NCBI RefSeq assembly: GCF_001598795.1
Contig: NZ_BCZP01000013.1
Coordinates: forward strand, 1-32,000
DNA: 32,000 bases
DNA from: Delftia acidovorans NBRC 14950
Lineage (GTDB): Bacteria > Pseudomonadota > Gammaproteobacteria > Burkholderiales > Burkholderiaceae_C
Direction: 5' to 3'
A program made the translations under genes and the position numbers. This document shows, piece by piece, positions 3,202 to 30,328 of this stretch (position 1 is its first letter; each line of letters starts with the position of its first letter). Below the pieces are notes generated by a model. It ran no database searches, had not been told where the DNA came from, and saw only the letters and a list, made by a program, of their open reading frames with translations.

Positions 3202-3225
3202 TAACAGCCACCCGAGGAAACAGGC

Positions 3226-12610: not shown

Positions 12611-13365
12611 TCGGCGTGTGCATCCCAGCCCATGACGAGGAAGACCTCATAGGCCGCTGCCTGGACAGCGTGTTTGGCGCGGCCGCCCATGCCGACCTGC
12701 AAGGCGAGACCGTGGCCGTCGTCGTGGTGCTGGACAGCTGCCAGGACGCCACCGAATCGGCCGTGCGCCGCTGGCCCGCCATCCCGTTGCCGATTGCCGC
12801 GCGCAACGTGGGCAAGGCCCGCGCGCTGGGGTCGGAGTACCTGCTGCTGCTGGGCGCCCGCTGGCTGGCCTTCACGGATGCCGACACCACGGTCTCCCAG
12901 AGTTGGCTGGCAGACCAGCTGGCGCTTCAGTCCGACGTGGTCTGCGGCACGGTGCAAGTGGCCGACTGGTCGGCCCACGGCGTCCAGGCGGACACGGCGC
13001 GGCGGCACTTCGAGACCACCTACACGGACCGCGACGGCCACCGCCACGTGCACGGCGCCAACCTGGGCATCTCAGCCTGGCACTACCGCCAGGCCGGCGG
13101 GTTCGACGCACGCACCTGCGGCGAGGACCAGGACCTGGTGGACCGCCTGGCGGCCGGCGGCGCCCGCATCGCCTGGTCGGCCCGGCCCCGGGTGATGACC
13201 AGCGGCCGCGCCTACTCGCGTGTGGCCGACGGTTTTGCCGGTGCGCTGCGCCAGGGATGGGCCCTGCCCGGCAACACGCCGCCTGAGCTGCCCGTGCTCC
13301 AGGGCGCCCTGGCGCAGCAGGCCCTGGCCCTGCCTCAACCGCAGGCCGGCTCGTCCACGCGGTAG
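12607..13365 (+). CDS. Family 2 glycosyltransferase
   Basis: The GT2-type pattern includes CIPAHDEEDLIGRCLDS, a DxD motif in FTDADT, GANLGI and GEDQDLVDRL. It is the last gene of the coupled four-gene set. Confidence 0.85.
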   Translation: MIGVCIPAHDEEDLIGRCLDSVFGAAAHADLQGETVAVVVVLDSCQDATESAVRRWPAIPLPIAARNVGKARALGSEYLLLLGARWLAFTDADTTVSQSWLADQLALQSDVVCGTVQVADWSAHGVQADTARRHFETTYTDRDGHRHVHGANLGISAWHYRQAGGFDARTCGEDQDLVDRLAAGGARIAWSARPRVMTSGRAYSRVADGFAGALRQGWALPGNTPPELPVLQGALAQQALALPQPQAGSSTR

Positions 13366-13895
13366 CAGTCCCTGAGGAACACCGGCAGGTCGTTGGCCGG
13401 CGGCACGAAGGGCACCTGGTACATCATGTCGCTGACAAAACCACGGTGGTAGCTGCCGTGGTTCACCACGTGCAGCACGATCTGCTCGCGCGTCATGGCG
13501 CCCTGCCCGCCGCCCACGAACTCGAAGTGCACGACCTTCGCCAGGTCTTCGTCCGGGCATGCGTCGACGAACTCCACATACCAGCGGTCCATTGCCTGCA
13601 CGGATTCCCACAGCGCCTGCAGCGTGGGCGTGTGGTCGGTGTTGCGCATCGTGTAGCCATGTTTGCGGCCCTGCAGGTGGTGCCTGAAGATGTCCTCCAC
13701 CACAAGGACGTGGTTCAGCGTGCGCACCATGTTGCCGAAGCTCGTGGGGCGCTGCTTCAGGGCCTCGCCTTCGGGCAGCTCCATCACGCTCTTGAAGGTC
13801 AGGCCGTTGGCCCAGGCCTTGTAGCGCACCAGCATTTTCAGGTTGGCCCTGGCCGATGAGACGGGAGCGCGCGGGCTCTCTTGGATCGCTGTCAT
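13335..13895 (-). CDS. DinB-family (DinB_2) metal-dependent protein
   Basis: 186 aa. The DinB-like four-helix pattern includes YKAWANGLTF, TLNHVLVVEDIFRHHL and HVVNHGSYHRG. Its 3' end overlaps the GT2 3' end by 31 nt (convergent). Confidence 0.83.
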   Translation of the reverse strand: MTAIQESPRAPVSSARANLKMLVRYKAWANGLTFKSVMELPEGEALKQRPTSFGNMVRTLNHVLVVEDIFRHHLQGRKHGYTMRNTDHTPTLQALWESVQAMDRWYVEFVDACPDEDLAKVVHFEFVGGGQGAMTREQIVLHVVNHGSYHRGFVSDMMYQVPFVPPANDLPVFLRDCYRVDEPACG

Positions 13896-13917
13896 TCGTG
13901 GTTTCTTTCGGTGTGGA

Positions 13918-14766
13918 TCAAAGGCCGCTCAGTGCGCCTTCGACATGGGTGCGCGCAGTGCCGCCCACCCAGACCTGGCCCGTGCCGTCACGGGTCAGGA
14001 AGATGCGGCCGTCACGGCCCAGACAGCGGCCCTGGGCGGCAACATAGTCGCTGTCCATCACCCCCGTCGCAAACAGCCACTGCGCCAGCGAGGCGTTGAG
14101 GCTGCCGGTGACGGGGTCTTCGACGATGGCGCCCTGGTGATCGGAGAAGAAGGCGCGCACCTCGCAGGCGGCAGGGCTGGCACCGCTGGCATAGGGTCCC
14201 ACCACGCCCACGTCCATGCGCGTGGGCCACTGCCGGGCCGGGTTCAGCGCCAGCACCTTCTCGGCCGAGGCCAGGCGGATGCCCAGCCAGCCGGGGCCGT
14301 TGTCTATCCACGAGGCGCCCTGCACCTCTTCGGCAGTGATGCCCAGCATGCGCAGCGCGGCATCCAGCTCATCGGCGGTGGGCGCGCCAAAGCGCAGCAT
14401 GGGCGGCGCGGCGAATGCCAGCCGCCCATGCTCCTGCCGTATCTGCACCAGTCCCGCCCCGCACTCCTGGACGATGTGGCCTGCGTTCTTGGGCGCACCG
14501 CGCTGGGACAGCCAGGCATGGCAGCTGCCCAGCGTGGGATGGCCGGCAAAAGGCATCTCCCGGTCCAGCGTGAAAATCCTCACGCGGTAGTCGGCCTGCG
14601 CCTGCGTGGGCGGCAGCAGGAACGCGGTTTCGGAGAGGTTGAACCAGCGCGTCAGCTGCTGCATCTGTGCAGTGGTCAGCGCCTGCCCACCGGTGATCAC
14701 GGCCAGCGGATTGCCAGACAGCGGGCCGCTGGCGAAAACGTCGACCATATGAACGGCAATGCTCAT
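13918..14766 (-). CDS. PhzF-family isomerase
   Basis: 282 aa. VDVFASGPLSGNPLAVI...FNLSETAFLL and FAGHPTLGS are typical of the PhzF family. Confidence 0.9.
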   Translation of the reverse strand: MSIAVHMVDVFASGPLSGNPLAVITGGQALTTAQMQQLTRWFNLSETAFLLPPTQAQADYRVRIFTLDREMPFAGHPTLGSCHAWLSQRGAPKNAGHIVQECGAGLVQIRQEHGRLAFAAPPMLRFGAPTADELDAALRMLGITAEEVQGASWIDNGPGWLGIRLASAEKVLALNPARQWPTRMDVGVVGPYASGASPAACEVRAFFSDHQGAIVEDPVTGSLNASLAQWLFATGVMDSDYVAAQGRCLGRDGRIFLTRDGTGQVWVGGTARTHVEGALSGL

Positions 14767-14829: not shown

Positions 14830-15234
14830 CTACGGCCGCACATCGGCGCGATGCAACACATGGACCTTGTTGCCGTCGGGATCGCGCAGGTAGGCGCCGT
14901 AGTAGCCATCGCCGTAATGCGGGCGCGGGCCGGGCGGGCCTTCGTCGCTGCCGCCCCGGGCCAGGCCGGCGGCATGGGCCGCGTCCACCGCGTCGGGCGA
15001 CGGGGCCACAAAGGCCACCATGGCGCCATTGCCCGCCGTGGCCGGCTCGCCGTTGAAGGGGCTGTAGACATAAAAGCGCGGCAAGGCCGCCGGCGGCGCC
15101 ACCCAGCACAGCGCGGCCGGCCCGCCATCGGGCTGGACGGCGCGGCGCTGCAGTCCCAGCGGGAAAAGCACCGCGTCATAGAAGCGGCCGGCCCGCTCGA
15201 GATCACGGGCGCCGACGGTGATGTGGCTGAACAT
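14830..15234 (-). CDS. VOC / glyoxalase-family protein
   Basis: 134 aa. It reads MFSHITVGARDLERAGRFYDAVL...GYYGAYLRDPDGNKVH, the VOC-fold pattern. Confidence 0.85.
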   Translation of the reverse strand: MFSHITVGARDLERAGRFYDAVLFPLGLQRRAVQPDGGPAALCWVAPPAALPRFYVYSPFNGEPATAGNGAMVAFVAPSPDAVDAAHAAGLARGGSDEGPPGPRPHYGDGYYGAYLRDPDGNKVHVLHRADVRP

Positions 15235-15303: not shown

Positions 15304-16671
15304 ATGCTCCTGCCCTCCCCCTGGACGCCCCGTCTTGCGCGCATTGAAGCCAGTGCCGCCGAGCGGCTGGCGCGCGCCCTGGCCGACGACATCGTCGAAG
15401 GCCAGCTGGCCGGCGGCGACCGCCTCCCCGCCCACAGAGACCTGGCCGACAGGCTGCAGATCGGCCTGGGCTCGGTGACCAGGGCCTATGCGCTGCTGGA
15501 GCGCCGGGGGCTGACACGCAGCGTCAAGGGCCGGGGCACCTTCGTGGCGTCACAGCAGGCGCAGGCTGGCGAGGACATCGACCTGTCTTCCAACGCGCCG
15601 CCGGCCGCCATCAGCGAACGCATGCTGGCGCGCACGCTGACCGCCATTGCGCGCCGCATCGATGCCGATCACTTCAATTCCTACGCGCCGCCGGGCGGAC
15701 ATCCGGAGCATCGCCGCGTGCTCGCGCGCTGGCTGCAGACGCTGGGCCTGAACGTGGAACCCGACCACATGGTGCTGACCAGCAGCGCGCGCCAGGCGCT
15801 GTCGCTGGCCCTTGACCTGGTCTGCCAGCCCCGGGGCCGGCTGCTGACCGAGCGCATCACCTACCCCGGCGCCATTGCCCTGGCCCGGCGCAAGGGCTGG
15901 GCCCTGCAGGGCCTGGCCATCGACACTCAGGGCCTGCTGCCGCAGGCGCTGGCCGATGCGCTGGAGGGCATTCCCGCCGCCGAAGGCAAGGTGGTCTACC
16001 TCACCCCCACGCTGCACAACCCGACCACGGCCACCATGGGCGCGGAGCGCAGGCAGGCGATCGTGGACATCTGCCGCAGCGCAGGCGCCTGGATCATCGA
16101 AGACGGCGTGTATGCCGCCTGCTTGCCCGATCACGCACCCTTGGCCCATCTGGCCACGCTGGCGCCCGAAATCACGCTGCATGTGAACGGGCTGTCCAAG
16201 TCCCTGGGACCGGGGCTGCAGGTGGGCATGCTGGTGCTGCCCGCTTCGCTGTGCGGCGCGGCTGTGGAGCTTGTGCAGGAGATGTCCATGGCGCCTTCGG
16301 CCCTCTCCTGCGCCGTGATCGATGAATGGCTGTCGCACGGCGTGGTCGCTTCCCTGCAGGCCGACCTGCGCCATGAGGCACAGCGGCGCTGCCGGCTGGC
16401 CGCATCACACCTCGCCTCACACCTGAGTGGCTCCGGCCTGGTGCTGCACCCCGAGGCCTACAACGCCTGGCTGCCCATGGAGCGCGAAGCCGCCGACCGC
16501 CTGGTATCGGCCGCAGCGGCGCTGGGTTTGAAGCTGACCGATCCGGGCTCGCTCATGGTGGACCCGCAGGAGCAGGCCAGCGGGCTGCGCATCTGCCTGG
16601 GTGCGCCGCGTTTCGACGCGCTGGACGGCGCCCTGGCGCAGTTGGCCCGGCTGCTTACTGCGGCGCCCTGA
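15304..16671 (+). CDS. MocR-subfamily GntR regulator (winged HTH fused to a PLP-dependent aminotransferase-fold domain)
   Basis: The ATG at 15304 (MLLPSPWTPRL) lies inside a 942-aa track ORF whose upstream part is antisense to the PhzF and VOC genes. The HTH reads LPAHRDLADRLQIGLGSVTRAYALLERRGL. The AAT-fold region contains YLTPTLHNPTT and the PLP-lysine context NGLSKSLGPGL. Confidence 0.88.
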   Translation: MLLPSPWTPRLARIEASAAERLARALADDIVEGQLAGGDRLPAHRDLADRLQIGLGSVTRAYALLERRGLTRSVKGRGTFVASQQAQAGEDIDLSSNAPPAAISERMLARTLTAIARRIDADHFNSYAPPGGHPEHRRVLARWLQTLGLNVEPDHMVLTSSARQALSLALDLVCQPRGRLLTERITYPGAIALARRKGWALQGLAIDTQGLLPQALADALEGIPAAEGKVVYLTPTLHNPTTATMGAERRQAIVDICRSAGAWIIEDGVYAACLPDHAPLAHLATLAPEITLHVNGLSKSLGPGLQVGMLVLPASLCGAAVELVQEMSMAPSALSCAVIDEWLSHGVVASLQADLRHEAQRRCRLAASHLASHLSGSGLVLHPEAYNAWLPMEREAADRLVSAAAALGLKLTDPGSLMVDPQEQASGLRICLGAPRFDALDGALAQLARLLTAAP

Positions 16672-17104
16672 GCTTGTGCTGCAGCGCCCTGGCCACGGCG
16701 CCCAGCACGGGGACCTTGGCGAAGATTTCCTCCACCGGGTCCCAGAAATCCCGGTGCGTCGCCACCAGCCCGTCGCCATCGAACTGCAGGTAGCTGGTGC
16801 CGCAGATGTGCATGGGCTGGCCGGATGCCCGCACAAAGCCCAGCTCCCACAGCAGAAAACCGCTGTCGCCCTGCACCGCGCCGTGGCTGACGGCGAAGCG
16901 GGGCCGGTCGAGCTGCTCGAACATGTGGGAAAACACGCGCTCGATCGCGGCGTGGCCGCGCACCTCGTTGAACGGGTCCTTGAACAGGGCCTGCTCGGCA
17001 TACAGGGACAGCAGCGCCGGCAGGTTGTCGCGGCGCAGGGCCTCGTAGGCCTGGGCCAAGCGGGCCAGTCGCGGATCGGATATGCCGCTGCTCATGGGTT
17101 TCAT
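16655..17104 (-). CDS. NTF2-like / SnoaL-fold protein
   Basis: 149 aa. LSLYAEQALFKDPFNEVRGHAAIERVF is typical of the SnoaL_2/NTF2 fold. Its ATG overlaps the SDR stop as ATGA (17101-17104). It is the last gene of the eight-gene operon. Confidence 0.78.
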   Translation of the reverse strand: MKPMSSGISDPRLARLAQAYEALRRDNLPALLSLYAEQALFKDPFNEVRGHAAIERVFSHMFEQLDRPRFAVSHGAVQGDSGFLLWELGFVRASGQPMHICGTSYLQFDGDGLVATHRDFWDPVEEIFAKVPVLGAVARALQHKLRAPQ

Positions 17105-17901
17105 GCTCCGGTGAAGCGGCGGACCGCAGAGAAATACCAGGCGTCGGGCAGGCAGCGCAGCAGGCGCACCCAGCGCGTGAAGCGGCGCGGGAAATTCATC
17201 TCAAAACGCCCCTGCGCCCAGCCCTGCAGCATATGCCGGGCCGCCTCGTCGGCGCCGATCAGGGCCGGCATGCTGAAGCTGTTTTGCGCCGTCAGCGGCG
17301 TATCGACAAAGCCGGGATTGATGATGGACACGCCCAGGCCCAGGCCATGCAGGTCCAGATAGAGGTTTTCCGCCAGGTTGTTGAGCGCCGCCTTGGTGGG
17401 GCCGTAGGCCAGGGACATGGGCAGCCCACGGTAGCCGGCCACCGAGCCGACCAGGGCCAGATGGCCCCGGCCAGCCTTGAGCAGCATGGGCAGCGCGGCA
17501 TCGAGCAGGTGCAGCACGCCGCCATAGTTCACGGCCAGGTGGTGCTGCATCTCGGCCAGGTCGAACTCGGTGGCGCGCAGGGGCCGGTAGTGGCCTGCGC
17601 AGTAGAGGATCAGGTCGGGTGCCCCGCCCGCGTGGGCCAGCACGGCCTGGGCGGCCGCATCCACGGCGGCGGCATCGGTCACGTCCAGCGGCAGGGCCAG
17701 GCAGCCCTCGCGGCCGCGCACGAAGTCCTGCAGCGCGCCGCCATGCCGTGCGGAGACGATCACCCGGGCGCCCTGCCGGTGCAGCGCCTCGGCCGTGGCA
17801 CGCCCTATGCCCGAGGAGGCGCCCACCACCCATGCCGAGCGTCCCTTCCAGTCAGCCAGCAGCGGGTTCAGCCCGCGCGAGAACAGCGGCATGGCCATCA
17901 C
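17101..17901 (-). CDS. Short-chain dehydrogenase/reductase (SDR)
   Basis: The cofactor motif is VVGASSGIGRA. The catalytic motif is YGPTKAA (YxxxK). The start is ambiguous (GTG 17901, ATG 17898 or ATG 17892), and all candidates abut or overlap the upstream stop. Confidence 0.88.
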   Translation of the reverse strand: MMAMPLFSRGLNPLLADWKGRSAWVVGASSGIGRATAEALHRQGARVIVSARHGGALQDFVRGREGCLALPLDVTDAAAVDAAAQAVLAHAGGAPDLILYCAGHYRPLRATEFDLAEMQHHLAVNYGGVLHLLDAALPMLLKAGRGHLALVGSVAGYRGLPMSLAYGPTKAALNNLAENLYLDLHGLGLGVSIINPGFVDTPLTAQNSFSMPALIGADEAARHMLQGWAQGRFEMNFPRRFTRWVRLLRCLPDAWYFSAVRRFTGA

Positions 17902-18458
17902 TCCTTGACAAAGGACAGCGTCACATCGCCCAGGTGCACGCCGAGCTTGCTCATGGCCGTGCGGTTGAGCAGGGTGCGCCCGTCCATGAGGTACATCCAG
18001 TCATCCATGTGGACGTTCCAGACCCGCCCATTCACGGGCAGGGCCAGCACATAGCTCCAGCGGATGGCATTGCCCGCGCTCTGGCCCTGGGCCTCGCCCA
18101 CCACGTCGTCGGCCCGGCCGCTGTAGCGGCCCTCGCCCAGGTGGCGGATATGCCAGACCCGCTCCTGCGTGCTGCCGTCGCTGTAGACGAAGTGCTCCTC
18201 CAGGGAGCCCTCGTCGCCATTCCAGCGGCCCGTCATGCGCACGGTGAATCGCTTGACCACCTTGCCCGATCGGTCCGTGAACATGCCGTGCGCCGTCAGC
18301 GGCCCGTTGAAATACTGGCGCAGGTCCAGCTGCGGCTGCTCCTTGGCGTAGTCCTGGACCGAAGGCCCGGCACAGCCCGCAAGGGACAGTGCCAAGGCCG
18401 CCCCCAGGCAGACGCGCCGCAGCGGCGAAAACGAAGTGGAGTGGGTGATGTGGCTCAT
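17898..18458 (-). CDS. DUF3833-family lipoprotein
   Basis: The ATG at 18458 overlaps the MFS stop as ATGA. The lipobox is LSLAGC. FNGPLTAHGMFTDRSGKVVKRFTVRMTGRWNGD matches the DUF3833 pattern. Confidence 0.8.
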   Translation of the reverse strand: MSHITHSTSFSPLRRVCLGAALALSLAGCAGPSVQDYAKEQPQLDLRQYFNGPLTAHGMFTDRSGKVVKRFTVRMTGRWNGDEGSLEEHFVYSDGSTQERVWHIRHLGEGRYSGRADDVVGEAQGQSAGNAIRWSYVLALPVNGRVWNVHMDDWMYLMDGRTLLNRTAMSKLGVHLGDVTLSFVKE

Positions 18459-19783
18459 GTGTGACTCCAGGAAGAATGCAATCGCTCGGCGCGCCAAAGC
18501 AGCAGCGCCGCCGCCAGCTTGAGCAGGCAGGGCAGCCCGCCATAGGCCCAGGCCAGCGCCTGCAGCCCGGCCGGGTCGGTGCCGCCGCTGCGGTAGCCCG
18601 CGGCGGACAGCAGGGGCAGGGCCAGGCCCGCAGCCAGGGCCAGGTTGAGCTTGGTGGCGCAGGTCCACCAGCCCAGGTAGCGGCCCTCGCCCCGGCCGCC
18701 CTGGCCGGACTCGTGGATCACGCCCGTGAGCAGTGCGCCCGGTAAGGCCAGGTCCGCGCCCAGGGCCAGCCCGCTGGCCAGGCAGATCACGGCAAAGGCC
18801 ATGGCATCGCCCGCGCCCAGCCAGGGCGTGAAGCCGAAGGCCAGCACGCTGGCCAGCATGCCCGCGCGCCAGCTGGGCGCCAGGCCCCAGCGCGAGACGG
18901 CCTTCACCCACAGCGGCAGGCCCAGGGCCGCCGCGCCAAAGAAGCACAGCAGCAGCAGGGGCTGCAGTGCAGGCGCCTGCAGCCTGTCGGCCACAAAGAA
19001 GGGCAGCAAGGTGGCGGGAACGGCCGCGGCCACGCCATTGAGCATGAAGATGGCCAGCAGCCGGCGAAACCCGGCATCCGCCCATGGAGAAGTGGAAGAG
19101 GCCAGGGCGGCCGAGGCCGGGGACTCCGCTTGCGGCATGCGCGGCGCAGAGGACACATGGGGCACAGGAGCCACGGGCGCCCGGAGCCGGTACAGCCCCA
19201 TCAGCCCCAGCGCCAGGCCCAGCGCAAGCACGGCGCTGGTGGCGTCAAGGCCCATCAAGGCCGGCAGCACGCTGGCCAGCAGCACGCCCGCCAGCGTGGC
19301 GCCCTCGCGCCAGGCCGTCACACGGGCACGCCAGGCGGGCTGCCCGCCCCAGCGGGTGCCCCAGGCCTGGTGGAGGATGGTGACGAAGCTGTAGGCCAGC
19401 GTGCACACCAGCAGGCTGCCGGCCAGCCAGCCCAGCATGGCGGCCTCGGAGCCGCGCGGCGGATGCCACAGCGCCCCGAAACCCAGCACCATCAGCAGGC
19501 TGCCCAGCGCAGCCGCACGCCAGGCCGGCCGCACACCGCCGCGCAGCAGCCTGTCGGCCTGGCGGCCAATTGCCGGATCGACCACGGCATCGAGCGCCCG
19601 CGTGGCCAGCAGCACGGCGCCCAGCCCGGCCAGCGGCGCGCCGGCCACGCTGGCGTAGTGGTAGGGCAGGTTCACATACAGGGGCAGGGACACAAAGGCC
19701 AGCGGCGCGGCCAGCCCGCCATAGGCCAGCCCTGTGCGCCAGGGCAGCACGGGGGCAGGAGCGGGGGCCGGGACGGAGGTCAT
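18455..19783 (-). CDS. MFS-type transporter
   Basis: 442 aa, with about 12 hydrophobic segments and a Gly/Ala/Leu-rich composition. It begins 18 nt after the upstream gene. Confidence 0.83.
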   Translation of the reverse strand: MTSVPAPAPAPVLPWRTGLAYGGLAAPLAFVSLPLYVNLPYHYASVAGAPLAGLGAVLLATRALDAVVDPAIGRQADRLLRGGVRPAWRAAALGSLLMVLGFGALWHPPRGSEAAMLGWLAGSLLVCTLAYSFVTILHQAWGTRWGGQPAWRARVTAWREGATLAGVLLASVLPALMGLDATSAVLALGLALGLMGLYRLRAPVAPVPHVSSAPRMPQAESPASAALASSTSPWADAGFRRLLAIFMLNGVAAAVPATLLPFFVADRLQAPALQPLLLLCFFGAAALGLPLWVKAVSRWGLAPSWRAGMLASVLAFGFTPWLGAGDAMAFAVICLASGLALGADLALPGALLTGVIHESGQGGRGEGRYLGWWTCATKLNLALAAGLALPLLSAAGYRSGGTDPAGLQALAWAYGGLPCLLKLAAALLLWRAERLHSSWSHT

Positions 19784-19801
19784 GGCATGGTCCGCTGGCG
19801 T

Positions 19802-20419
19802 TCAGCCCTGGCCCAGCAGCGAGGTGCGCATGGCAGGCGCCGAGGTCTGCGGCGACAGCCAGATGCCGAAGAACAGGCGCGCATAGTCGGCATCGCGCAG
19901 CTGCGCCGTCTGCCGGCCGTTGTGGAAAAAGCGCACATCGCCCTGGCCATCGTTCAGGCCCAGCAGCCGGTCCTTGGCCACCACATCGGGAAAGGCCTGC
20001 TTCATCAGGTCCAGCCATTGGCGCGCCTGCTCTTCGGTGAAGCTGCCGACCCTGCGCATTTCGGCGATGGAGCGCTCGGCGATGGCCGCGCCTTCGAGCT
20101 TGCGGTCGTAGACCAGCTCCAGCGCAAACGGGTGGCGGGCGTAGTCCTCGGGCAGCAGTCCGGGCGCGGCCCACAGCCGCGCCTCATAGACGCGCAGGCC
20201 GAAAAAGCGCAGCACGGCCGTGCCCATCAGGCGCGCAGACGGCAGGGCGCTGCGCAGTTCGGCCGGAAGTTCGGCGGTCGGGGTCATGGCGTGCAGGGCG
20301 TTGGACATGGTGATCAATGAAGGGGCAAGGACGCAGGCGGCGCACCAGCCCAGGGCCTTGCGGCGGGGTGCATGGGGTGCACGCGGCGCGCGGCGCGCGT
20401 GAGGTTGCGGGGCTGTCAT
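19802..20419 (-). CDS. Chalcone-isomerase-like family protein (secreted/periplasmic)
   Basis: The ATG at 20419 overlaps the upstream stop as ATGA. A signal-like segment reads RKALGWCAACVLAPSLITMSNALHA. LRFFGLRVYEARLW and LFFGIWL are typical of bacterial CHI-like proteins. Confidence 0.78.
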   Translation of the reverse strand: MTAPQPHARRAPRAPHAPRRKALGWCAACVLAPSLITMSNALHAMTPTAELPAELRSALPSARLMGTAVLRFFGLRVYEARLWAAPGLLPEDYARHPFALELVYDRKLEGAAIAERSIAEMRRVGSFTEEQARQWLDLMKQAFPDVVAKDRLLGLNDGQGDVRFFHNGRQTAQLRDADYARLFFGIWLSPQTSAPAMRTSLLGQG

Positions 20420-21684
20420 GGCAGGGGCTTGCGCAGCGTGAACTGGACGACATCGGTGTTGCCGGTATCGAAGGCCGCCTCGCAATACGCCAGGTAGAAG
20501 GTCCAGATGCGCACGAAGCGTTCGTCAAAGCCCTGGGCACGCACGGTCTCCAGGCGCTCCTCGAAGGACTGGCGCCAGCGCCTGAGCGTCTCCGCATAGT
20601 CGCGGCCAAAGGCCATGCGGCCTTCCACCACCAGGCCGGCGCGCCGTGCCTCCTGCTCGAAGGCGGGGATGCTGGGCAGCAGGCCGCCCGGGAAGATGTA
20701 CTGCTGGATGAAGTCGGTGGAGCGCAGATAGCGCGCGAACAGGTCCTCGCGCAGCGTGATGGTCTGTATGCAGGCCAGGCCCCCGGGCTTGAGGCAGTCG
20801 CGCAGCGTCTGGAAGTAGCCGCGCCAGTATTCGCGGCCCACGGCCTCGAACATCTCGATGGAGACGATGGCGTCGAAGGGCTCGCCCGCATGGCGCGCGG
20901 GCAGGTCGCGGTAGTCCTGGTAGCGCAGCTCCACCGCGTCGGCCAGGCCGGACTGCTGCATGCGCTGCTGCCCCCAGACCAGTTGCTCGCGCGACAGGGT
21001 CACGCCCGTGACCCGGGCGCCGAACTCCTGCGCCGCCGCCTCGGCCAGGCCGCCCCAGCCGCAGCCGATTTCCAGCAGGCGCTGGCCGGGCTGCAGCCGC
21101 ACCTCGTCCAGCGTGCGCCTGAGCTTGGCCTGCTGGGCCTCCTGGAGGTCCGCGTTGCGCAGCGCTTGGCCCGTGCGGCCCTGGAACCAGGCCGCGCTGT
21201 AGCTCATGCCCGGGTCCAGCCACAGGCGGTAGAAATCATTGCCCAGGTCGTAATGTGCATGGATGTTCCTGGCGCTGCCGGCCCGCGTATTGCGCTGCAG
21301 CAGATGGCGCAGGCGGTAGCCCAGCCGGCCCCACCAGCTGCCATAGACCAGGCTTTGCACATGGTCGCGGTTGACCATGCACAGCCGCAGCAGGGCGGCC
21401 AGGTCGGGGCTGTCCCACTCACCGGCGATATAGCCTTCGGCCAGCCCGATGTCGCCCGATTTGAGTGTGCGCTCCAGCGCCTGCCAGTCGTGCAGCACGC
21501 AATGCGCATCGGCAGCCCCCGACGGCGGGCGGGGCAGGTGCAGCAGGCGGCCATCGGGCTGCTCCAGGTCCAGTTGCCCGTGGGGCAGGCGTTCGAGCAG
21601 GTTCAGCACCCGGCGCGCCCGTGCAGGCGTGCGGCGCGGCGCTGCCGCGGAGGGGCTCAGCAGGGGGGCGGCGGTAGTGTTCAT
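20416..21684 (-). CDS. Cyclopropane-fatty-acyl-phospholipid synthase family SAM-dependent methylase
   Basis: The ATG at 21684 (MNTTAAPLL) overlaps the DUF1365 stop as ATGA. Motifs are NIHAHYDLGNDFYRLWLDPGMSYS, LLEIGCGWGGLA and IFPGGLLPS. Confidence 0.92.
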   Translation of the reverse strand: MNTTAAPLLSPSAAAPRRTPARARRVLNLLERLPHGQLDLEQPDGRLLHLPRPPSGAADAHCVLHDWQALERTLKSGDIGLAEGYIAGEWDSPDLAALLRLCMVNRDHVQSLVYGSWWGRLGYRLRHLLQRNTRAGSARNIHAHYDLGNDFYRLWLDPGMSYSAAWFQGRTGQALRNADLQEAQQAKLRRTLDEVRLQPGQRLLEIGCGWGGLAEAAAQEFGARVTGVTLSREQLVWGQQRMQQSGLADAVELRYQDYRDLPARHAGEPFDAIVSIEMFEAVGREYWRGYFQTLRDCLKPGGLACIQTITLREDLFARYLRSTDFIQQYIFPGGLLPSIPAFEQEARRAGLVVEGRMAFGRDYAETLRRWRQSFEERLETVRAQGFDERFVRIWTFYLAYCEAAFDTGNTDVVQFTLRKPLP

Positions 21685-22433
21685 CGTGTGACGAAGCGCT
21701 TGGGCTCGGAGGGTTTGCCATGGAAAGGCACGCGCTTGGCCCAAAGGCGCAGCGCATGCCAGTGGATGCGGGCGACCACGCCCAGCGTCATCAGGGGCGT
21801 GCCGAAGAAGGCGCGGCGCACGGTGGCGCCGTCGAGCGGGTGCAGCACGCCGCCCACGCTGGTCTGCAGCAGCGGGCCGTCCTCGTCGTGCAGGTCCACG
21901 CGCGCCAGGGTGCGGCCTTCGCCGCGCTCGAAGCGGAAGCGGTACTCGCCGCGCACCTCGCAAAACGGCGAGACATGGAATTGCTTGCGCGCCACCTGCT
22001 CGCGGCCCCAGTCCAGGTCCGGCCCCGCCAGCAGATAGGCATGGCGCTCGCCAAAGGTGTTGTTGACCTCGGCCAGCACGGCGGCCAGCGAGCCGTCGGC
22101 GCGGTGCGCATACCAAAAGCTCACGGGCTTGAACACGTAGCCCAGCACGCGGGGGAAGGTGTGCAGCCAGACCTCGCCATCGGCGTCGGCTATGCCTTCG
22201 CTGTGCAGCAGCTGCTCGAACCAGGCCAGTGCGTCGCAGCCGCCCTCGCCGTGGTCGCTGTCATGAAAGCTCAGCCAGCCCAGCCGGTTGCGCCGCAGCG
22301 CGGCGTCCGGCTGCGTGCGCAGGCTGCGCAGCGGCAGCATCAGAAAGTAGCCGGGATAGCGGAAGGCATGCTCGACAGGCCGCAGGCGGCGGTGCCAGAC
22401 ATGGCCGAAGCCGATGAGGGGGCGGGCCGTCAT
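21681..22433 (-). CDS. DUF1365-family protein
   Basis: The ATG at 22433 (MTARPLIGFGHVWHRRLRPVEHAFRYPGYFLMLPL) overlaps the upstream stop as ATGA. The G.V.H.R..P..H.F.Y pattern is characteristic of DUF1365. Confidence 0.85.
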   Translation of the reverse strand: MTARPLIGFGHVWHRRLRPVEHAFRYPGYFLMLPLRSLRTQPDAALRRNRLGWLSFHDSDHGEGGCDALAWFEQLLHSEGIADADGEVWLHTFPRVLGYVFKPVSFWYAHRADGSLAAVLAEVNNTFGERHAYLLAGPDLDWGREQVARKQFHVSPFCEVRGEYRFRFERGEGRTLARVDLHDEDGPLLQTSVGGVLHPLDGATVRRAFFGTPLMTLGVVARIHWHALRLWAKRVPFHGKPSEPKRFVTR

Positions 22434-23776
22434 GCAACCCCCTCGAAGGCCGCGCTGGCGGGCAGAACGGGCAAGGCCGGCAGGGAACGCAGCAGGCCAT
22501 CGGCCGCGTCCAGGCCCGAGCGCAGGCCGTCTTCGTGAAAGCCGTAGCCGCACCATGCGCCGCAGAACCAGGTCCGGCGCTGGCCCTGCACGTCGGCCAC
22601 GCGGCCCTGGGCCTCGATGGCCGCCAGGTCGAACACCGGGTGGCTGTACTCGATGCGCGCATGGACCTGGCCTTCATCGATCGGGCGCACCGGGTTCAGC
22701 GAAACCATCACGGGCTGCTGCCACGGCAGGGGCTGCAGGCGATTGAGCAGGTAGTGCAGGCAGACGCCGGCCTGGTCCCGCCCCGGGTCGGCCGCGCGTT
22801 CGTAGTTCCAGGCGGCCCAGGCCGCCTGCCTGCGCGGCAGCACGCTGGCATCGGTGTGCAGAACGGCCTGGTTGGGCTGGTAGCGGATGGCGCCCAGCAC
22901 GCTGCGCTCCTGTGGCGTGGCATCGCTGCCGAGCAGGCGCAGGGCCTGGTCGCTGTGGCAGGCCAGCACCACGGCGTCGAACGGCTCCGTGCCGTTCGCC
23001 GTCTGCAGCAGCGCGCCGTGCGCGGCGCGGCGCAGGCCCAGCACGGGCGCATTCAGGCGCGCCTCGTGGCGGCCGTCCTTCAGCAGCGCGGCCACCATGC
23101 GCCGCACGTACTGGCGCGAGCCGCCGCGCACCGTGTGCCACTGCGGCCGGTCCGTGACCTGGATCAGTCCATGGTTGTGGCAAAAGCGGATCAGCGTGGC
23201 CACGGGAAAGCGCAGCATCTGGTCGGTGGGGCAGGACCAGATGCAGCCCATCATGGGCAGCAGGTAGTCCTGACGGAAGGCGGCGCCAAAGCCGTGGTCG
23301 TCCAGAAAATCGCCGATGGCGCTGCGCAGCCGCACTTCATCGCCTTCCTGGGCGATGCGCGTGGCCAGGCGGTTGAAGCGCAGGATCTCGGCCAGCATCT
23401 TCAGAAAGCGCGGGCGCAGCAGATTGCCCCGCTGCGCGAACACGCCGCCCAGCGAACTGCCGCTCCATTCAAGGCCCGCGCGGCCATCGGCCTGGGGCAC
23501 CTGCACGGAAAACGACATCTCGGCGGCAGCCGTGGGCACCTGCAGCTGCTCGAACAAACGTGTCAGCAGTGGATAGGTGCGGTGGTTGAAGACCAGAAAG
23601 CCGGTGTCCACGCCCTGGCTCACGCCGCCCAGCGTCAGGTCCACCGTGTTGGCGTGCCCCCCGAAATGGCCGCCAGCCTCCAGCAAGGTCACGGCAGGCC
23701 CGCCCGGCGCCGCGGCCAGGCGGCTCGCTGCGGCCAGCCCCGCAATCCCCGAACCGATGACAGCAATGCGATGCAT
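22430..23776 (-). CDS. FAD/NAD(P)-dependent oxidoreductase (amine-oxidase / phytoene-desaturase-like)
   Basis: 448 aa. The N-terminal dinucleotide fold reads MHRIAVIGSGIAGLAAA. It is the first gene of the eight-gene operon and is divergent from the TetR gene. Confidence 0.9.
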   Translation of the reverse strand: MHRIAVIGSGIAGLAAASRLAAAPGGPAVTLLEAGGHFGGHANTVDLTLGGVSQGVDTGFLVFNHRTYPLLTRLFEQLQVPTAAAEMSFSVQVPQADGRAGLEWSGSSLGGVFAQRGNLLRPRFLKMLAEILRFNRLATRIAQEGDEVRLRSAIGDFLDDHGFGAAFRQDYLLPMMGCIWSCPTDQMLRFPVATLIRFCHNHGLIQVTDRPQWHTVRGGSRQYVRRMVAALLKDGRHEARLNAPVLGLRRAAHGALLQTANGTEPFDAVVLACHSDQALRLLGSDATPQERSVLGAIRYQPNQAVLHTDASVLPRRQAAWAAWNYERAADPGRDQAGVCLHYLLNRLQPLPWQQPVMVSLNPVRPIDEGQVHARIEYSHPVFDLAAIEAQGRVADVQGQRRTWFCGAWCGYGFHEDGLRSGLDAADGLLRSLPALPVLPASAAFEGVA

Positions 23777-23828
23777 GGAGGCGCCCTTCTTGGTTGAACA
23801 GACCGACTAGACCACAAAGACCAAATCG

Positions 23829-23844
23829 TGAACTGATGAGTTCA
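23829..23844. promoter_or_regulatory. Palindrome in the AT-rich TetR/operon divergent region (candidate TetR operator)
   Basis: TGAACT-GATG-AGTTCA (23829-23844) has perfect 6-bp arms. A second inverted pair is ACCAAA (23853-23858) and TTTGGT (23877-23882). Confidence 0.35.
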
Positions 23845-23916
23845 AACTATAAACCAAACATACCCGCTTTGCACTATTTGGTATCAGATATGACCTGCGA
23901 GGTCTAAAATATCGCT

Positions 23917-24555
23917 ATGACTAGCCGCTCCTCCATCAAAGAACAGATACAGCGCGTGCGCGAGCAGGCCATCGTGGCGGCCGTCAACCGGCTGCTGGCC
24001 ACCAAGGGCTACGACGCCATGACGGTGGACGAGGTCGCGGCCGAGGCCGGCATGGCCAAGGCCAGCCTGTACAAGCTGTTCACCTCCAAGGAAGAACTGG
24101 CGGGCGCCGCCATGGTGGGCGTGCTGGACCGCGCCCTGGCCTTTGTGGACGGCCTGCGCGACACGGCGGCCCAGGCCGCCGAGGCCGGCACGCCGGTGCG
24201 CCCGCTGGACCAGCTCAAGGCCGTGACGTGCTGGGCCATGCAGACCCAGCTGGAAGGCGAAATGCCCTCCCTGCCGGCGCAGAACTCCAACCTCAGCGCC
24301 TCCCTGCAATCCAACGATGCCTACATGGACCGGCTGATCGCCCTGAGCAACCGCCTGAGCATCTGGATCACCGAGGCCCAGACCAGCGGCCAGCTGCAGC
24401 CCGCGCTGCCGGCCGAGCTGGTGCTCTACACGCTGTTCGCGCGGGCCTGCGATCCGGTGGTGGCCCTGCTCAAGGAATCGGGCCAGTACACGCACGCGCA
24501 AATCATCGACTGGGTCACGAGCACCACGTTCGACGGGCTGGCGGCGGCGGATTGA
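23917..24555 (+). CDS. TetR/AcrR-family transcriptional regulator
   Basis: 212 aa. The N-terminal HTH reads AAVNRLLATKGYDAMTVDEVAAEAGMAKASLYKLFTSKEEL. Confidence 0.9.
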   Translation: MTSRSSIKEQIQRVREQAIVAAVNRLLATKGYDAMTVDEVAAEAGMAKASLYKLFTSKEELAGAAMVGVLDRALAFVDGLRDTAAQAAEAGTPVRPLDQLKAVTCWAMQTQLEGEMPSLPAQNSNLSASLQSNDAYMDRLIALSNRLSIWITEAQTSGQLQPALPAELVLYTLFARACDPVVALLKESGQYTHAQIIDWVTSTTFDGLAAAD

Positions 24556-26094: not shown

Positions 26095-26619
26095 GTGCAT
26101 CCATCCACCGACAGTGGCGCCAGCCAGGCTCTGGGCAGCATGTACGCGCAGCACAACCATTGGCTGGTCGCGTGGCTGCAGCGCAGGCTGGGCAACCGCT
26201 GCGATGCGGCCGACCTGGCCCAGGACACGTTCACGCGCATCTGGGTCAGCGCCAGGACACAGGCCATCGAGGACATCCAGGAGCCCCGCGCCTACCTGAC
26301 GACGGTGGCCCGGCGGCTGCTGGTCAACCACCTGGAGCGCCGCTCGCTGGAGCAGGCCTACCTGGCCTCCCTGCACCTTCTGCCCCAGGCCACCGTGCTG
26401 TCCGTGGAGGCGCGGGCCATCCTGCTGGAGACGCTGCAGGAGCTCGATGCGCTGCTGGACGCCCTGCCCGCCAAGGTGCGCACGGCCTTTCTCATGTCCC
26501 AGCTCGAAGGCCTGTCCTACGAGGACATTGCCGCCCACATGCAACTGAGCGTGCGCACCGTGACCCGCTACATGGCCCAGGGCTTTCGGCAATGCCTGCT
26601 GGTGATGCTGGAGCGCTGA
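26095..26619 (+). CDS. FecI-type (iron-starvation) ECF sigma factor
   Basis: 174 aa with a GTG start. LGSMYAQHNHWLVAWLQRRLGNRCDAADLAQDTFTRIW, PRAYLTTVARRLLVNHLERR and FLMSQLEGLSYEDIAAHMQLSVRTVTRYM align with the E. coli FecI pattern. Confidence 0.9.
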   Translation: MHPSTDSGASQALGSMYAQHNHWLVAWLQRRLGNRCDAADLAQDTFTRIWVSARTQAIEDIQEPRAYLTTVARRLLVNHLERRSLEQAYLASLHLLPQATVLSVEARAILLETLQELDALLDALPAKVRTAFLMSQLEGLSYEDIAAHMQLSVRTVTRYMAQGFRQCLLVMLER

Positions 26620-26621
26620 GC

Positions 26622-27575
26622 ATGCAGGCCGCAGACGCACGCATCCTGGACGAGGCTGCCCGCTGGCTGGCACGCAGGCACGCCTCGGACTTCAGCGCCG
26701 CCGAGCAGGCCGAGCTGGCACGCTGGCGCAGCCAGAGCAGCCGGCATGAACACATCTGGCAGTGCGCCGAGCAGCTCAAGGGCCGCTTCAACGCCGTTCC
26801 CGGCGCCGTCGGCATGGCCACGCTCAACCGCGCGCGCCCCTCGGCGGCACGGCGCCAGTTGCTGCGCTCGGCCGTGCTGGCCCTGGCCACGCCTGCGCTG
26901 GGCTGGCTGGCCTGGCGCCATCTGCCCTGGCAGGACTGGACGGCCGACTACCGCACGGCCAGGGGCGAGCGCCGCGCGGTCACGCTGGCCGATGGCAGCC
27001 GCGTGCAGCTGAACACGGCCTCGGCCATCAGCGTGCGCATGGATGGCACGGCGCGGCGCATCCGCCAGCATGCCGGGGAAATCCTGGTCGAGACCGCGCA
27101 TGCCCCGCCCTACGCCTCCCAGCCTTTCATGGTGCAGACAGACGACGGCCAGATGCAGGCCCTGGGCACGCGCTTCATCGTGCGCAAGCTGGAGCGGGGC
27201 ACGGCGCTGGCCGTGCTGGAGGGCGCGGTGCGCGTCACGCCGGCAGCATCGGCCACGGCCGTGGTGGTGCATGCGGGCGAGCAACTGCAATTCGATGGAC
27301 AAGGCGCCAGCGCCACCCGCCCGGTGGCGCCGCGGGACTCGGCCTGGACGCTGGGCGTGCTCTATGCCGAGAACCTGCGGCTGCAGGACTTCCTGGCCGA
27401 GCTGTCGCGCTACCGCGAAGGCCTTGTGCGGTGCGACGACGATGTCGCCGACCTGCGCGTCTCCGGCACCTACCAGCTGCATGACACCGACCGCATCCTG
27501 GCCCTGCTGGCCCAGACCCTGCCGGTGCGCGTGCACGAGCGCAGCCGGTACTGGGTGACGGTGGCGCGGCGCTGA
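26622..27575 (+). CDS. FecR-type transmembrane anti-sigma/sensor
   Basis: The ATG at 26622 lies 2 nt after the sigma stop. The N-terminal region reads EAARWLARRH...AELARWR. There is a single TM segment (LLRSAVLALATPALGWLAW). The FecR core reads YRTARGERRAVTLADGSRVQLNTAS...GEILVET...ALGTRFIV. Confidence 0.9.
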   Translation: MQAADARILDEAARWLARRHASDFSAAEQAELARWRSQSSRHEHIWQCAEQLKGRFNAVPGAVGMATLNRARPSAARRQLLRSAVLALATPALGWLAWRHLPWQDWTADYRTARGERRAVTLADGSRVQLNTASAISVRMDGTARRIRQHAGEILVETAHAPPYASQPFMVQTDDGQMQALGTRFIVRKLERGTALAVLEGAVRVTPAASATAVVVHAGEQLQFDGQGASATRPVAPRDSAWTLGVLYAENLRLQDFLAELSRYREGLVRCDDDVADLRVSGTYQLHDTDRILALLAQTLPVRVHERSRYWVTVARR

Positions 27576-27671
27576 TCCGATTTTTTTCTGCCGTGGCTGT
27601 CCGGTTTTTCGCTCTCGCCTGTCAAGGCTTGCGAAGACCACTTTCATCGACAGCCCAGAGGACAGAACACC

Positions 27672-30259: not shown

Positions 30260-30297
30260 TAAAATGAGAACCAATCGCATTAAGTCATTGATATCAG
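30260..30297. promoter_or_regulatory. AT-rich region with Fur-box-like half sites upstream of ECF sigma gene 2
   Basis: TAAAATGAGAACCAATCGC matches about 11 of 19 positions of the Fur consensus. It is followed by GTCATTGATATCA. It shares AAATGAGAA with 26025-26033. Confidence 0.33.
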
Positions 30298-30328
30298 GGG
30301 ATTCATCTTTGCGGTTGTGGGGGTCAGC

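Follow-up and report, generated by a model that had tools for sequence, protein, structure and literature searches.

A locus of Delftia acidovorans NBRC 14950 raises the question of whether an operon that opens with three genes resembling those for methylated furan fatty acids serves the same chemistry, and what the five genes behind them contribute. The operon lies on contig NZ_BCZP01000013.1 of assembly GCF_001598795.1, the first 32,000 nucleotides of which were analysed and are called the window here. It is formed by eight tightly packed open reading frames (ORFs) on the minus strand, which extend from position 23776 to position 16655 and encode, in this order, a flavin adenine dinucleotide (FAD)-dependent enzyme, a DUF1365 protein, a methylase of the cyclopropane-fatty-acid (CFA) synthase family, a secreted chalcone isomerase (CHI)-like protein, a transporter of the major facilitator superfamily (MFS), a DUF3833 lipoprotein, a short-chain dehydrogenase/reductase (SDR), and a small NTF2-like protein. 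The cluster is an uncharacterised, gene-extended instance of the ufaD-ufaO-ufaM cluster of furan fatty acid synthesis and photo-oxidative stress, and it is widespread in Burkholderiales; its core is not new. The copy in the window is set apart by its regulation, with a TetR-family regulator and a palindrome replacing the B12-binding MerR-type regulator and the structured RNA of its relatives. The explanation favoured here, with moderate confidence, is that the operon is the Delftia version of the methylated-furan-fatty-acid cluster, in which a Ufa core is joined by add-on modules for lipid handling and tailoring and is repressed by TetR.

All eight reading frames are present at the coordinates and in the order reported in an earlier note on this sequence, and Pfam backs every family named there. 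The junctions that it had listed were read directly on the minus strand: five are ATGA start/stop overlaps (22430–22433, 21681–21684, 20416–20419, 18455–18458, and 17101–17104), one (17898–17901) is a GTGA followed by ATG (TGATG), and the sole intergenic gap in the operon is 18 nucleotides long (19784–19801). Because of the GTGA/TGATG junction, the start of the SDR gene is either the GTG at 17901 or an ATG that overlaps the preceding stop codon by one base. The operon ends at 16655, because a convergent gene for a MocR-type regulator (GntR and aminotransferase; approximately 15304–16671, plus strand) overlaps the last 17 nucleotides of the eighth gene. Four-base start/stop overlaps are common in high-GC operons, and the tight packing is not unusual in itself; the GC content of the window is approximately 69%. 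By contrast, the fact that different species share the complete gene order is clearly beyond chance, a grading that is not extended to the overlaps alone. The GC content is uniform along the operon and gives no sign of recent transfer.

The conservation of the gene order was assessed in the 80 best loci around DUF1365 homologues, one for each GTDB species and mostly from Burkholderiales, in which homologues of the window proteins were located by tblastn; counts of gene order rest on the 58 loci with enough flanking sequence. The exact order of all eight genes is found in 48 of the 58 evaluable Burkholderiales species. The methylase gene stands in a fixed order with the genes of the FAD enzyme and the DUF1365 protein in 57 species, and the MFS, DUF3833, and SDR genes are each present in 56 of the loci, the CHI-like gene in 53, and the NTF2-like gene in 49. 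In these 49 loci the NTF2-like gene is located at the end of the operon; in Comamonas it has moved upstream of the tetR gene. The median protein identities across the loci are 43–64%, and therefore the conserved order is not simply the result of recent common descent. In protein searches, the 120 closest matches listed were all at least 63% identical to the query, and almost all of the named ones came from Burkholderiales.

Related arrangements occur outside this set. All eight genes are encoded in the same order on an Azoarcus plasmid. The order in Pseudoalteromonas is NTF2-SDR-FAD-DUF1365-methylase-DUF2878-CHI-DUF3833, which is shared by Aeromonas with one extra small gene, and that in Paracoccus is FAD-DUF1365-methylase-MFS-SDR. 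Azospirillum has the MFS and DUF3833 genes with the core and an NTF2-SDR pair on the opposite strand. The MFS gene adjoins the core in Paracoccus, Qingshengfaniella, and Azospirillum, and the SDR gene adjoins that of the NTF2-like protein in Pseudoalteromonas, Aeromonas, and Azospirillum too. On plasmids of Cupriavidus and Burkholderia, a Blc-type lipocalin gene is found in place of DUF3833. Two conserved sub-modules thus recur across Alpha-, Beta-, and Gammaproteobacteria, one composed of the CHI-fold and DUF3833 proteins, with or without the MFS transporter, and the other of the SDR and the NTF2-like protein. A check of the phylogenetic profile shows that the accessory genes are strongly co-conserved with the core, in the exact order in Burkholderiales and as subsets in Alpha- and Gammaproteobacteria. 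The core pathway has already been characterised, and the function of its companion genes has been open since the sigmaE regulon was defined; the two sub-modules into which they fall are now visible.

Furan fatty acid synthesis in Rhodobacter sphaeroides requires the methylase UfaM (RSP2144), the FAD enzyme UfaD (RSP1091), and the 250-residue DUF1365 protein UfaO (RSP1090) (PMC7380195). RSP1091 and RSP1090 head a five-gene operon that continues with RSP1089 (CFA-synthase-like, 402 residues), RSP1088 (186 residues), and RSP1087 (245 residues), and single deletions of RSP1087, RSP1088, or RSP1089 left the fatty-acid profile unchanged (PMC7380195). UfaM is encoded outside this operon, beside a photolyase gene, and its in-operon paralogue is dispensable (PMC7380195); the inclusion of UfaM in a trio of R. 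sphaeroides genes by the earlier note was therefore mistaken. In Rhodopseudomonas palustris, RPA2571-2570-2569 are ufaD-ufaO-ufaM, lie together, and are necessary and sufficient for the formation of the furan fatty acid 9M5-FuFA (PMC7380195). Two members of the operon RSP1091-1087, the SDR RSP1087 and the 186-residue lipoprotein RSP1088, also belong to the core regulon of sigmaE, which is conserved (PMC5507510, Table 2).

The first three genes in the window encode members of the same protein families as ufaD, ufaO, and ufaM and head the operon in the order of R. palustris, in which the in-operon gene of the CFA synthase family is that of UfaM (PMC7380195). The window differs from the R. palustris cluster in its five additional genes, the sole further gene named for that cluster being RPA2568 (PMC7380195), and in its divergent tetR gene. 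The likeness to the R. sphaeroides operon extends further along the gene order: UfaD comes first, followed by a 250-residue DUF1365 UfaO and a CFA-synthase-like gene, and the 186-residue lipoprotein and the SDR match the DUF3833 protein (186 residues) and the SDR of the window by length or family. Unlike the window, the R. sphaeroides operon is without CHI-fold, MFS, and NTF2 genes, its proven methylase is encoded elsewhere, and it is under divergent sigmaE-ChrR control, whereas the window has TetR and no ChrR. The FAD enzyme, the DUF1365 protein, and the methylase are 43–44%, 39%, and 45–46% identical, respectively, to homologues from Paracoccus and Mesorhizobium, which adjoin a sigma-factor/anti-sigma pair (annotated as ChrR in Mesorhizobium). 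For comparison, the proteins of the same genes in Pseudomonas syringae and R. sphaeroides, which Butcher et al. list as orthologues, share 35–39% identity (PMC5507510). The earlier assignment of the first three genes to the UfaD/UfaO/UfaM trio is supported by the families, the R. palustris gene order, and these identities of 39–46%.

The UfaD-like FAD enzyme (22430–23776, minus strand), which is encoded by the first gene of the operon, belongs to the amine-oxidase family (Pfam Amino_oxidase, E-value 2e-21, with NAD_binding_8). Its closest solved relative is LkcE (E-value 4e-36), and the alignment spans nearly the full protein. The gene is located directly upstream of the DUF1365 gene, which in the window it overlaps by ATGA, in every Burkholderiales locus for which the region was recovered, among them all 58 evaluable ones, and the adjacency is kept in most, not all, of the loci inspected outside Burkholderiales. 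The UfaO-like DUF1365 protein (21681–22433, minus strand) matches its Pfam model with 264.9 bits over model positions 3–234 of 235. It is 250 residues long, equal in length to RSP1090, and 99% identical to Delftia acidovorans proteins. Family members from four phyla and classes show no variation at residues H14, R16, N125, T126, Y133, K150, and S155-P156-F157, and the window protein keeps all of them. A sequence search of the PDB found no related solved structure. The protein is a candidate for the O2-dependent furan-forming enzyme.

Judged from homology and synteny with the characterised pathway, the first three enzymes probably make methylated furan fatty acids in membrane lipids. The CFA-synthase-family enzyme would methylate cis-vaccenoyl chains on phospholipids to a methyl-branched trans-olefin, the FAD enzyme would introduce a second double bond, and the DUF1365 protein would close the furan ring with O2. 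An envelope module, consisting of the MFS_2 transporter, the secreted CHI-fold lipid binder, and the lipocalin-like lipoprotein of the outer leaflet, might handle the modified or oxidised lipid or lysolipid outside the cytoplasm, and the cytoplasmic SDR and NTF2-like pair might tailor or repair oxidised chains. Neither accessory module would be expected to be necessary for the furan ring. It is also conceivable, but unlikely, that the core stops before the furan or makes another modified chain, such as a methyl-branched, conjugated-diene, or other oxygenated lipid, with the SDR and NTF2-like proteins as biosynthetic steps. DUF1365 chemistry is known from two proteins only (PMC7380195), the SDR and NTF2-like genes are conserved with the core as well as the core genes are with one another, SnoaL-type proteins are often cyclases or isomerases, the window protein showing weak similarity to ketosteroid isomerase, and furan fatty acid reports for the Delftia group were not found in the literature search. 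However, in both of the species tested the furan is formed with the three core genes alone, the SDR homologue is dispensable there, and the DUF1365 protein retains every residue that is invariant in its family.

The methylase gene (20416–21684, minus strand) encodes a UfaM-like S-adenosylmethionine (SAM)-dependent enzyme of the two-domain phospholipid type (Pfam CMAS, 294 bits), which aligns lengthwise with the two-domain bacterial CFA synthases 7qos and 6bqc. An alternative in which it makes cyclopropane rings like Escherichia coli Cfa, in an ordinary cyclopropane-fatty-acid operon with unrelated stress genes as neighbours, draws on the best-scoring named families and solved structures, which are cyclopropane fatty acid synthases, and on RefSeq, which labels the homologues as 'cyclopropane-fatty-acyl-phospholipid synthase family protein'. 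However, the methylase scores under the equivalog cut-offs of every CFA synthase family of NCBIfam: 267.6 against 400 bits for NF008686, 256.8 against 600 for NF053839, and 253.4 against 650 for NF040703. When it was aligned to the Cfa sequence taken from E. coli K-12, it was found to have A139 in place of C139 and Q266 in place of H266, and to keep E239, I268, and Y317. These five positions presumably form the bicarbonate site of Cfa, in which C139 and H266 would help to hold the catalytic bicarbonate. The two replacements are consistent within the operon-linked group. At the position of Cfa H266, every one of the 73 operon-linked homologues from the Burkholderiales loci has glutamine, and so do all ten further operon-linked homologues examined, which were taken from Azoarcus, Cupriavidus, Burkholderia, Pseudoalteromonas, Legionella, Streptomyces, Paracoccus, and Mesorhizobium; the group, with members also in Alpha- and Gammaproteobacteria and Actinobacteria, has serine or alanine at the position of C139. 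Together with the fixed order with the FAD enzyme and DUF1365 genes and with the identity of the R. palustris in-operon homologue as UfaM (PMC7380195), this makes an ordinary cyclopropane operon very improbable.

The enzyme of the window is thus similar to E. coli Cfa (6bqc) in its two-domain architecture, its SAM-methyltransferase fold, and the residues E239, I268, and Y317, at approximately 32% identity, and it differs in A139, in Q266, and in its score under the equivalog cut-off. Its product would be expected to be a methyl-branched olefin, unlike the cyclopropane of Cfa. A second type of methylase, which is always paired with a DUF1295 gene, retains the cysteine and the histidine and is approximately 23–26% identical to the window methylase; FufM of R. 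palustris is 26% identical to UfaM (PMC7380195). The DUF1295-paired methylase may catalyse a dimethyl-furan (FufM-type) step. From these residue patterns we infer that the group with Q266 is of the methyl-olefin-forming (UfaM) type and that the group paired with DUF1295 resembles FufM. The window lacks a second methylase of this kind together with its DUF1295 gene, and therefore a monomethyl product would be expected. Glutamine in place of histidine at the bicarbonate site of Cfa may mark methyl-olefin-forming as opposed to cyclopropane-forming enzymes, which would provide a testable marker. Pairs of DUF1295 and second methylase genes were observed near the core in Cupriavidus, Ensifer, Burkholderia, and Mesorhizobium (L002:11635-13505, L006:5614-7457, L009:5033-6963, and L092:3423-5278).

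The five genes behind the core were described in the earlier note as unexplained companions. They indeed have no known job; however, they are not all new, because the SDR and the lipoprotein already belong to the RSP1091-1087 operon and the sigmaE core regulon. The secreted CHI-fold protein (19802–20419, minus strand) matches Pfam Chalcone_3 with 26.8 bits, just under the cut-off of 27. Its AlphaFold2 model has a predicted local distance difference test (pLDDT) score of 85, with residues 50–205 above 90, and in a Foldseek search of the PDB the best-ranked 50 of 53 matches with an E-value of at most 0.001 were all CHI-fold, including the Arabidopsis fatty-acid-binding proteins (FAPs) FAP1 (4doo, E-value 6e-8) and FAP3 (4dol); the E-values for these plant proteins range from 6e-8 to 4e-7 at a probability of 1.0. 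The CHI fold, and with it the label of the earlier note, is confirmed by the predicted structure. On inspection, the N-terminus, composed of RRK, ALGWCAACVLAPSLI, and ALHA, looks like a Sec signal peptide, and the model shows it as disordered. Several arginine and tyrosine residues, the residue types of the conserved carboxylate clamp of fatty-acid-binding CHI-fold proteins, are invariant in the alignment of the family. The protein resembles the plant FAPs in its predicted fold and its association with fatty-acid metabolism, but differs from them in being secreted and in sharing only approximately 10–13% sequence identity. True chalcone isomerases match the model equally well, and therefore the fold alone leaves the ligand unidentified. 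Nevertheless, the protein is a candidate periplasmic binder of fatty acids or lipids.

The transporter (18455–19783, minus strand; Pfam MFS_2, 164 bits) belongs to the GPH-type inner-membrane proteins and contains 11 hydrophobic 19-mers. A sequence search of the PDB matched it, weakly and in part, to MFSD2A lysophosphatidylcholine symporters alone (7mjs, 7oix, and 8d2s), with which it shares membership of the MFS_2/GPH branch. The DUF3833 lipoprotein (17898–18458, minus strand; 232 bits in Pfam) has the same length as RSP1088, the P. syringae homologue of which is annotated as 'lipoprotein' (PMC5507510). It carries the lipobox L-A-G-C, in which L26 and C29 are invariant in 35 homologues, and a hydrophobic N-terminal segment at residues 16–34; the lipoprotein signal was judged by inspection. 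No solved structures related by sequence to it or to the CHI-like protein were found in the PDB sequence search. The AlphaFold2 model of the DUF3833 protein (pLDDT 89.5) is a barrel of ten antiparallel strands, and its Foldseek matches are BFA1, nitrobindin, the FABP-like Ycf58, lipocalins, and ApoD (E-values 6e-5 to 5e-3, template-modelling score at most 0.61); the lipoprotein is predicted to be a lipocalin/nitrobindin-like (calycin) beta-barrel.

DUF3833 homologues with 47% identity were also observed in 148 plasmid records, of which 95 are from Klebsiella and others from Raoultella, Enterobacter, and E. coli; 95 are typed as conjugative. The single locus inspected is on the Klebsiella pneumoniae plasmid pBY221-2 (NZ_CP090220.1, L093), where the DUF3833 gene is accompanied by a DUF523/DUF1722 gene, beside IS5 and the lac operon and without the DUF1365 core. 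This locus looks like a fragment of the photo-oxidative-stress cluster that has been truncated by an insertion sequence.

The SDR (17101–17901, minus strand; Pfam adh_short, 123 bits) is of the classical type and is the counterpart of RSP1087; its GASSGIG cofactor motif and Y-x-x-x-K motif were recognized by inspection. The last gene of the operon (16655–17104, minus strand) encodes a small SnoaL/NTF2-like protein (Pfam SnoaL_2, 62 bits), whose matches to ketosteroid isomerases in the PDB are weak. In R. sphaeroides, at least the SDR and the lipoprotein can be lost without effect on the furan ring, and the unaltered fatty-acid profile of the RSP1087, RSP1088, and RSP1089 deletions argues against a role for these genes in its formation. 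The modelled folds and the locations of the accessory proteins are compatible with the export, trafficking, or tailoring role suggested in the earlier note, in the form of an extracytoplasmic lipid-handling trio (CHI, MFS, and DUF3833) and a cytoplasmic pair for tailoring or repair. A much more specific proposal, that the five proteins together constitute an as yet undescribed pathway by which the envelope deals with furan or oxidised phospholipids, appears doubtful. In such a pathway, the MFS_2 transporter would serve as the inner-membrane flippase for a modified lysolipid or fatty acid, the CHI-fold protein would act as the periplasmic carrier and the lipocalin-like DUF3833 lipoprotein as the outer-membrane receiver, the SDR/NTF2 pair would regenerate or detoxify furan chains that had reacted with singlet oxygen, and TetR would sense a lipid-derived ligand, not light. 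If true, it would provide a function for RSP1087, RSP1088, and many homologues.

The regulation of the operon in the window differs from that of most of its relatives. A gene for a TetR-family regulator (23917–24555, plus strand; Pfam TetR_N, E-value 1.4e-14) is divergent to the operon. It is this gene, and not an extracytoplasmic function (ECF) sigma/anti-sigma pair, that flanks the locus, and the statement of the earlier note that control appears to be by TetR is reasonable, though this is a minority variant: TetR orthologues (76–99% identical) are divergent to the operon in 10 of the 80 related loci, which come from Delftia, Comamonas, Pelomonas/Roseateles, Mitsuaria, and metagenome-assembled genomes. 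A TetR relative with 37% identity occupies the same divergent position on a Cupriavidus plasmid. The intergenic region contains a perfect palindrome, TGAACT-N4-AGTTCA (23829–23844), a candidate operator that precedes the first start codon by 52 nucleotides. The palindrome occurs nowhere else in the window, and 100 shuffles yielded no instance; it is exact in nine of the ten TetR-bearing loci and has one mismatch in the tenth, 48–140 nucleotides before the first gene. Promoter-like elements on the minus strand (23846–23874) consist of GTGCAA (23874–23869), a 17-nucleotide spacer, and TATAGT (23851–23846), and they end one nucleotide before the palindrome. In an alignment of ten intergenic regions, GTGCAA is invariant and TAT-N-N-T is conserved. 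This layout would be expected for a TetR operator overlapping a sigma-70-type promoter, and the two elements are candidates for these roles. With its TetR_N domain and with the conserved palindrome between its gene and the operon, TetR is the candidate repressor of the operon. Transcription would start from the sigma-70-like promoter and be repressed by TetR through the palindrome, and TetR would replace the singlet-oxygen (sigmaE-ChrR) or light (B12-MerR) control in the Delftia lineage. The palindrome was also observed approximately 290–390 nucleotides upstream of the FAD-enzyme gene in loci L024, L044, L053, L054, and L056, where it lies upstream of the RNA element described below, and in several further loci without TetR the promoter region contains a related GACT-N4-AGTC palindrome.

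Most of the loci other than the TetR-bearing ones have a B12-type MerR, the structured RNA, or both. A gene of the MerR family, homologous to that of Azoarcus, is next to the operon in 37 of the 80 Burkholderiales loci and on Azoarcus and Aeromonas plasmids. A Pfam check of the 300-residue Azoarcus protein identified two B12-binding domains, as in light sensors of the CarH/LitR type, and the association of the same operon with MerR is its likeness to systems under such regulators. Blue light induces a homologue of CFA synthase in the MerR/ChrR response of Vibrio cholerae (PMC5241685). Plasmid loci of other classes have sigmaE-ChrR, a sigma/anti-sigma pair not annotated as ChrR, or MerR. The window contains no MerR/B12 regulator, the divergent position being occupied by TetR. 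An rpoE-chrR pair adjacent or divergent to the operon was not found: the only sigma/anti-sigma pairs in the window are of the FecR type, not ChrR, and the sigmaE promoter motif was not searched for. The first of these pairs is composed of an ECF sigma gene (26095–26619, plus strand) and a FecR gene assigned by Pfam (26619–27575), followed by the gene of a TonB-dependent receptor (27576–30191), and the second (module 30284–31902) of an ECF sigma gene (30284–30844, plus strand) and an ORF that is FecR-like by inspection. With such FecR-type partners, one of them followed by a TonB-dependent receptor, both ECF sigma genes were judged to be unrelated to the regulation of the operon.

Several observations weigh against the interpretation of the locus as the Delftia version of the methylated-furan-fatty-acid cluster. 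The core was likened to the characterised Ufa proteins by family and by gene order, the identities being those to alphaproteobacterial proxies only. The literature search found no furan fatty acid reports for Delftia, Comamonas, Acidovorax, or Burkholderia. RSP1089 is methylase-like, is encoded within its operon, and is dispensable in R. sphaeroides (PMC7380195), and therefore an in-operon position is no guarantee of UfaM activity. The accessory roles are left open by the deletions of the SDR and lipoprotein homologues in R. sphaeroides, which had no lipid phenotype (PMC7380195). The match of the transporter to MFSD2A (7mjs, E-value 6e-5, residues 277–408) is too weak and partial for a secure inference of its substrate. 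The palindrome is present, exactly or with one mismatch, in five loci without a TetR homologue within 10 kb, and its assignment to TetR is therefore inferred. Finally, no promoter was called in a consensus sigma-70 and terminator scan of positions 23650–24050, so that the promoter is proposed from conservation only. Hardly any credence can be given to a small-molecule cluster for the tailoring and efflux of secondary metabolites or xenobiotics in place of a membrane-lipid system: such clusters commonly combine TetR and an MFS pump with an SDR, a SnoaL protein, and an FAD amine oxidase, the pairing of TetR and an MFS transporter is classic for efflux, LkcE belongs to lankacidin biosynthesis, and SnoaL-like domains are named after polyketide cyclases, but in four phyla and classes the gene set is accompanied by photolyase, by sigmaE-ChrR and B12-MerR regulators, and by a CFA-synthase homologue of the two-domain phospholipid type, TetR is found in only 10 of the 80 related loci, and no genes for polyketide synthases, non-ribosomal peptide synthetases, or other scaffold-forming enzymes are present in the window. 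Delftia could be a convenient organism for experiments, because it is non-phototrophic and has an apparent single TetR switch with a simple operator; derepression of the whole gene set combined with a search for a lipid phenotype could be easier than in an organism with sigmaE-ChrR.

In relatives without TetR, a conserved RNA of approximately 131 nucleotides follows the promoter region and precedes the first gene. The RNA includes the 23-mer TCCTCCTCCTCCCTCCCTCCCTC, which is exact in 20 species, and has an invariant CU-rich loop, CUCCUCCUCCCUCCCUCCCUC. An alignment of 42 instances gives a three-helix structure, in which an 11-base-pair outer helix encloses a hairpin and a 9-base-pair helix; the loop of the latter is approximately 30 nucleotides long and is the invariant CU-rich tract. 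The structure is supported by covariation: 88% of the alignment cells are paired, compared with 38–46% when the partners are displaced by one to three columns, both sides change in 25 of the 27 pairs, and none of 500 shuffles reaches any of the observed measures. With a covariance model, the RNA was identified in 53 of the 80 Burkholderiales loci and in each case shortly before the FAD-enzyme gene, for example at L016:8077-8207, L024:8506-8636, L044:3939-4069, and L056:8445-8575 (all plus strand). The window, the ten TetR loci, and the loci from other classes gave no match to the model, and Rfam 15 holds no matching family. The RNA, which lies outside the window, is rated the most novel item of this analysis.

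At least 120 further instances of the RNA were found in an exact-match scan of metagenomes. The downstream sequence was sufficient in 106 of them; the operon follows in 81 of these and is lacking in 25, and all of these 25 are strong matches to the model. In the operon-less instances examined, several in number, a convergent corA or glutathione S-transferase gene follows, and at least one has a glutathione peroxidase gene before it; these genes were identified as frame-checked ORFs with Pfam. A riboswitch with a classic downstream terminator was considered, but the RNA is not termed a riboswitch here, since a separate terminator-like hairpin is present in only 10 of 51 instances and the operon is missing downstream of 25 of the 106 metagenomic ones. 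The RNA may be both a leader and a stand-alone small RNA. Its nearest analogy is provided by the CcsR/'cuckoo' small RNAs with CCUCCUCCC loops from the photo-oxidative response of Rhodobacter (PMC8034643, PMC4615179), a likeness offered as an analogy only.

Photolyase/cryptochrome genes recur near the cluster in other genomes, and MsrPQ and fasciclin genes are also found there. The neighbour genes of the relatives support a photo-oxidative-stress role for the cluster, as far as gene neighbourhood can indicate. The window itself contains no genes for photolyase, glutathione peroxidase, glutathione S-transferase, AurF-like protein, MsrPQ, or fasciclin. Many loci of the Comamonadaceae type have a co-directional gene for a secreted glutathione peroxidase just before the operon (L044:3176-3757, L057:7787-8428, and L072:7819-8274), a divergent gene for a di-iron FA_desaturase_2/AurF-like protein (L024:6875-7744 and L031:7024-8019), and a glutathione S-transferase gene (L024:6193-6861), these two likewise ahead of the operon.

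The flanks of the window hold AraC-type and MocR-type regulators, the FecI/FecR-type iron-signalling modules with the TonB-dependent receptor, and the PhzF, glyoxalase, and DinB genes. The last three are further minus-strand genes past the end of the operon, at 14830–15234 (glyoxalase), 13918–14766 (PhzF-like), and 13335–13928 (DinB); no link of these genes or of the MocR-type gene to the operon was seen in other genomes. Farther away, the plus strand encodes an HTH/Peptidase_M78/ScfRs-type regulator of the short-chain fatty-acyl-CoA regulator family (3205–4638) and a family-20 glycosyltransferase of the trehalose-6-phosphate-synthase type (8359–10059).

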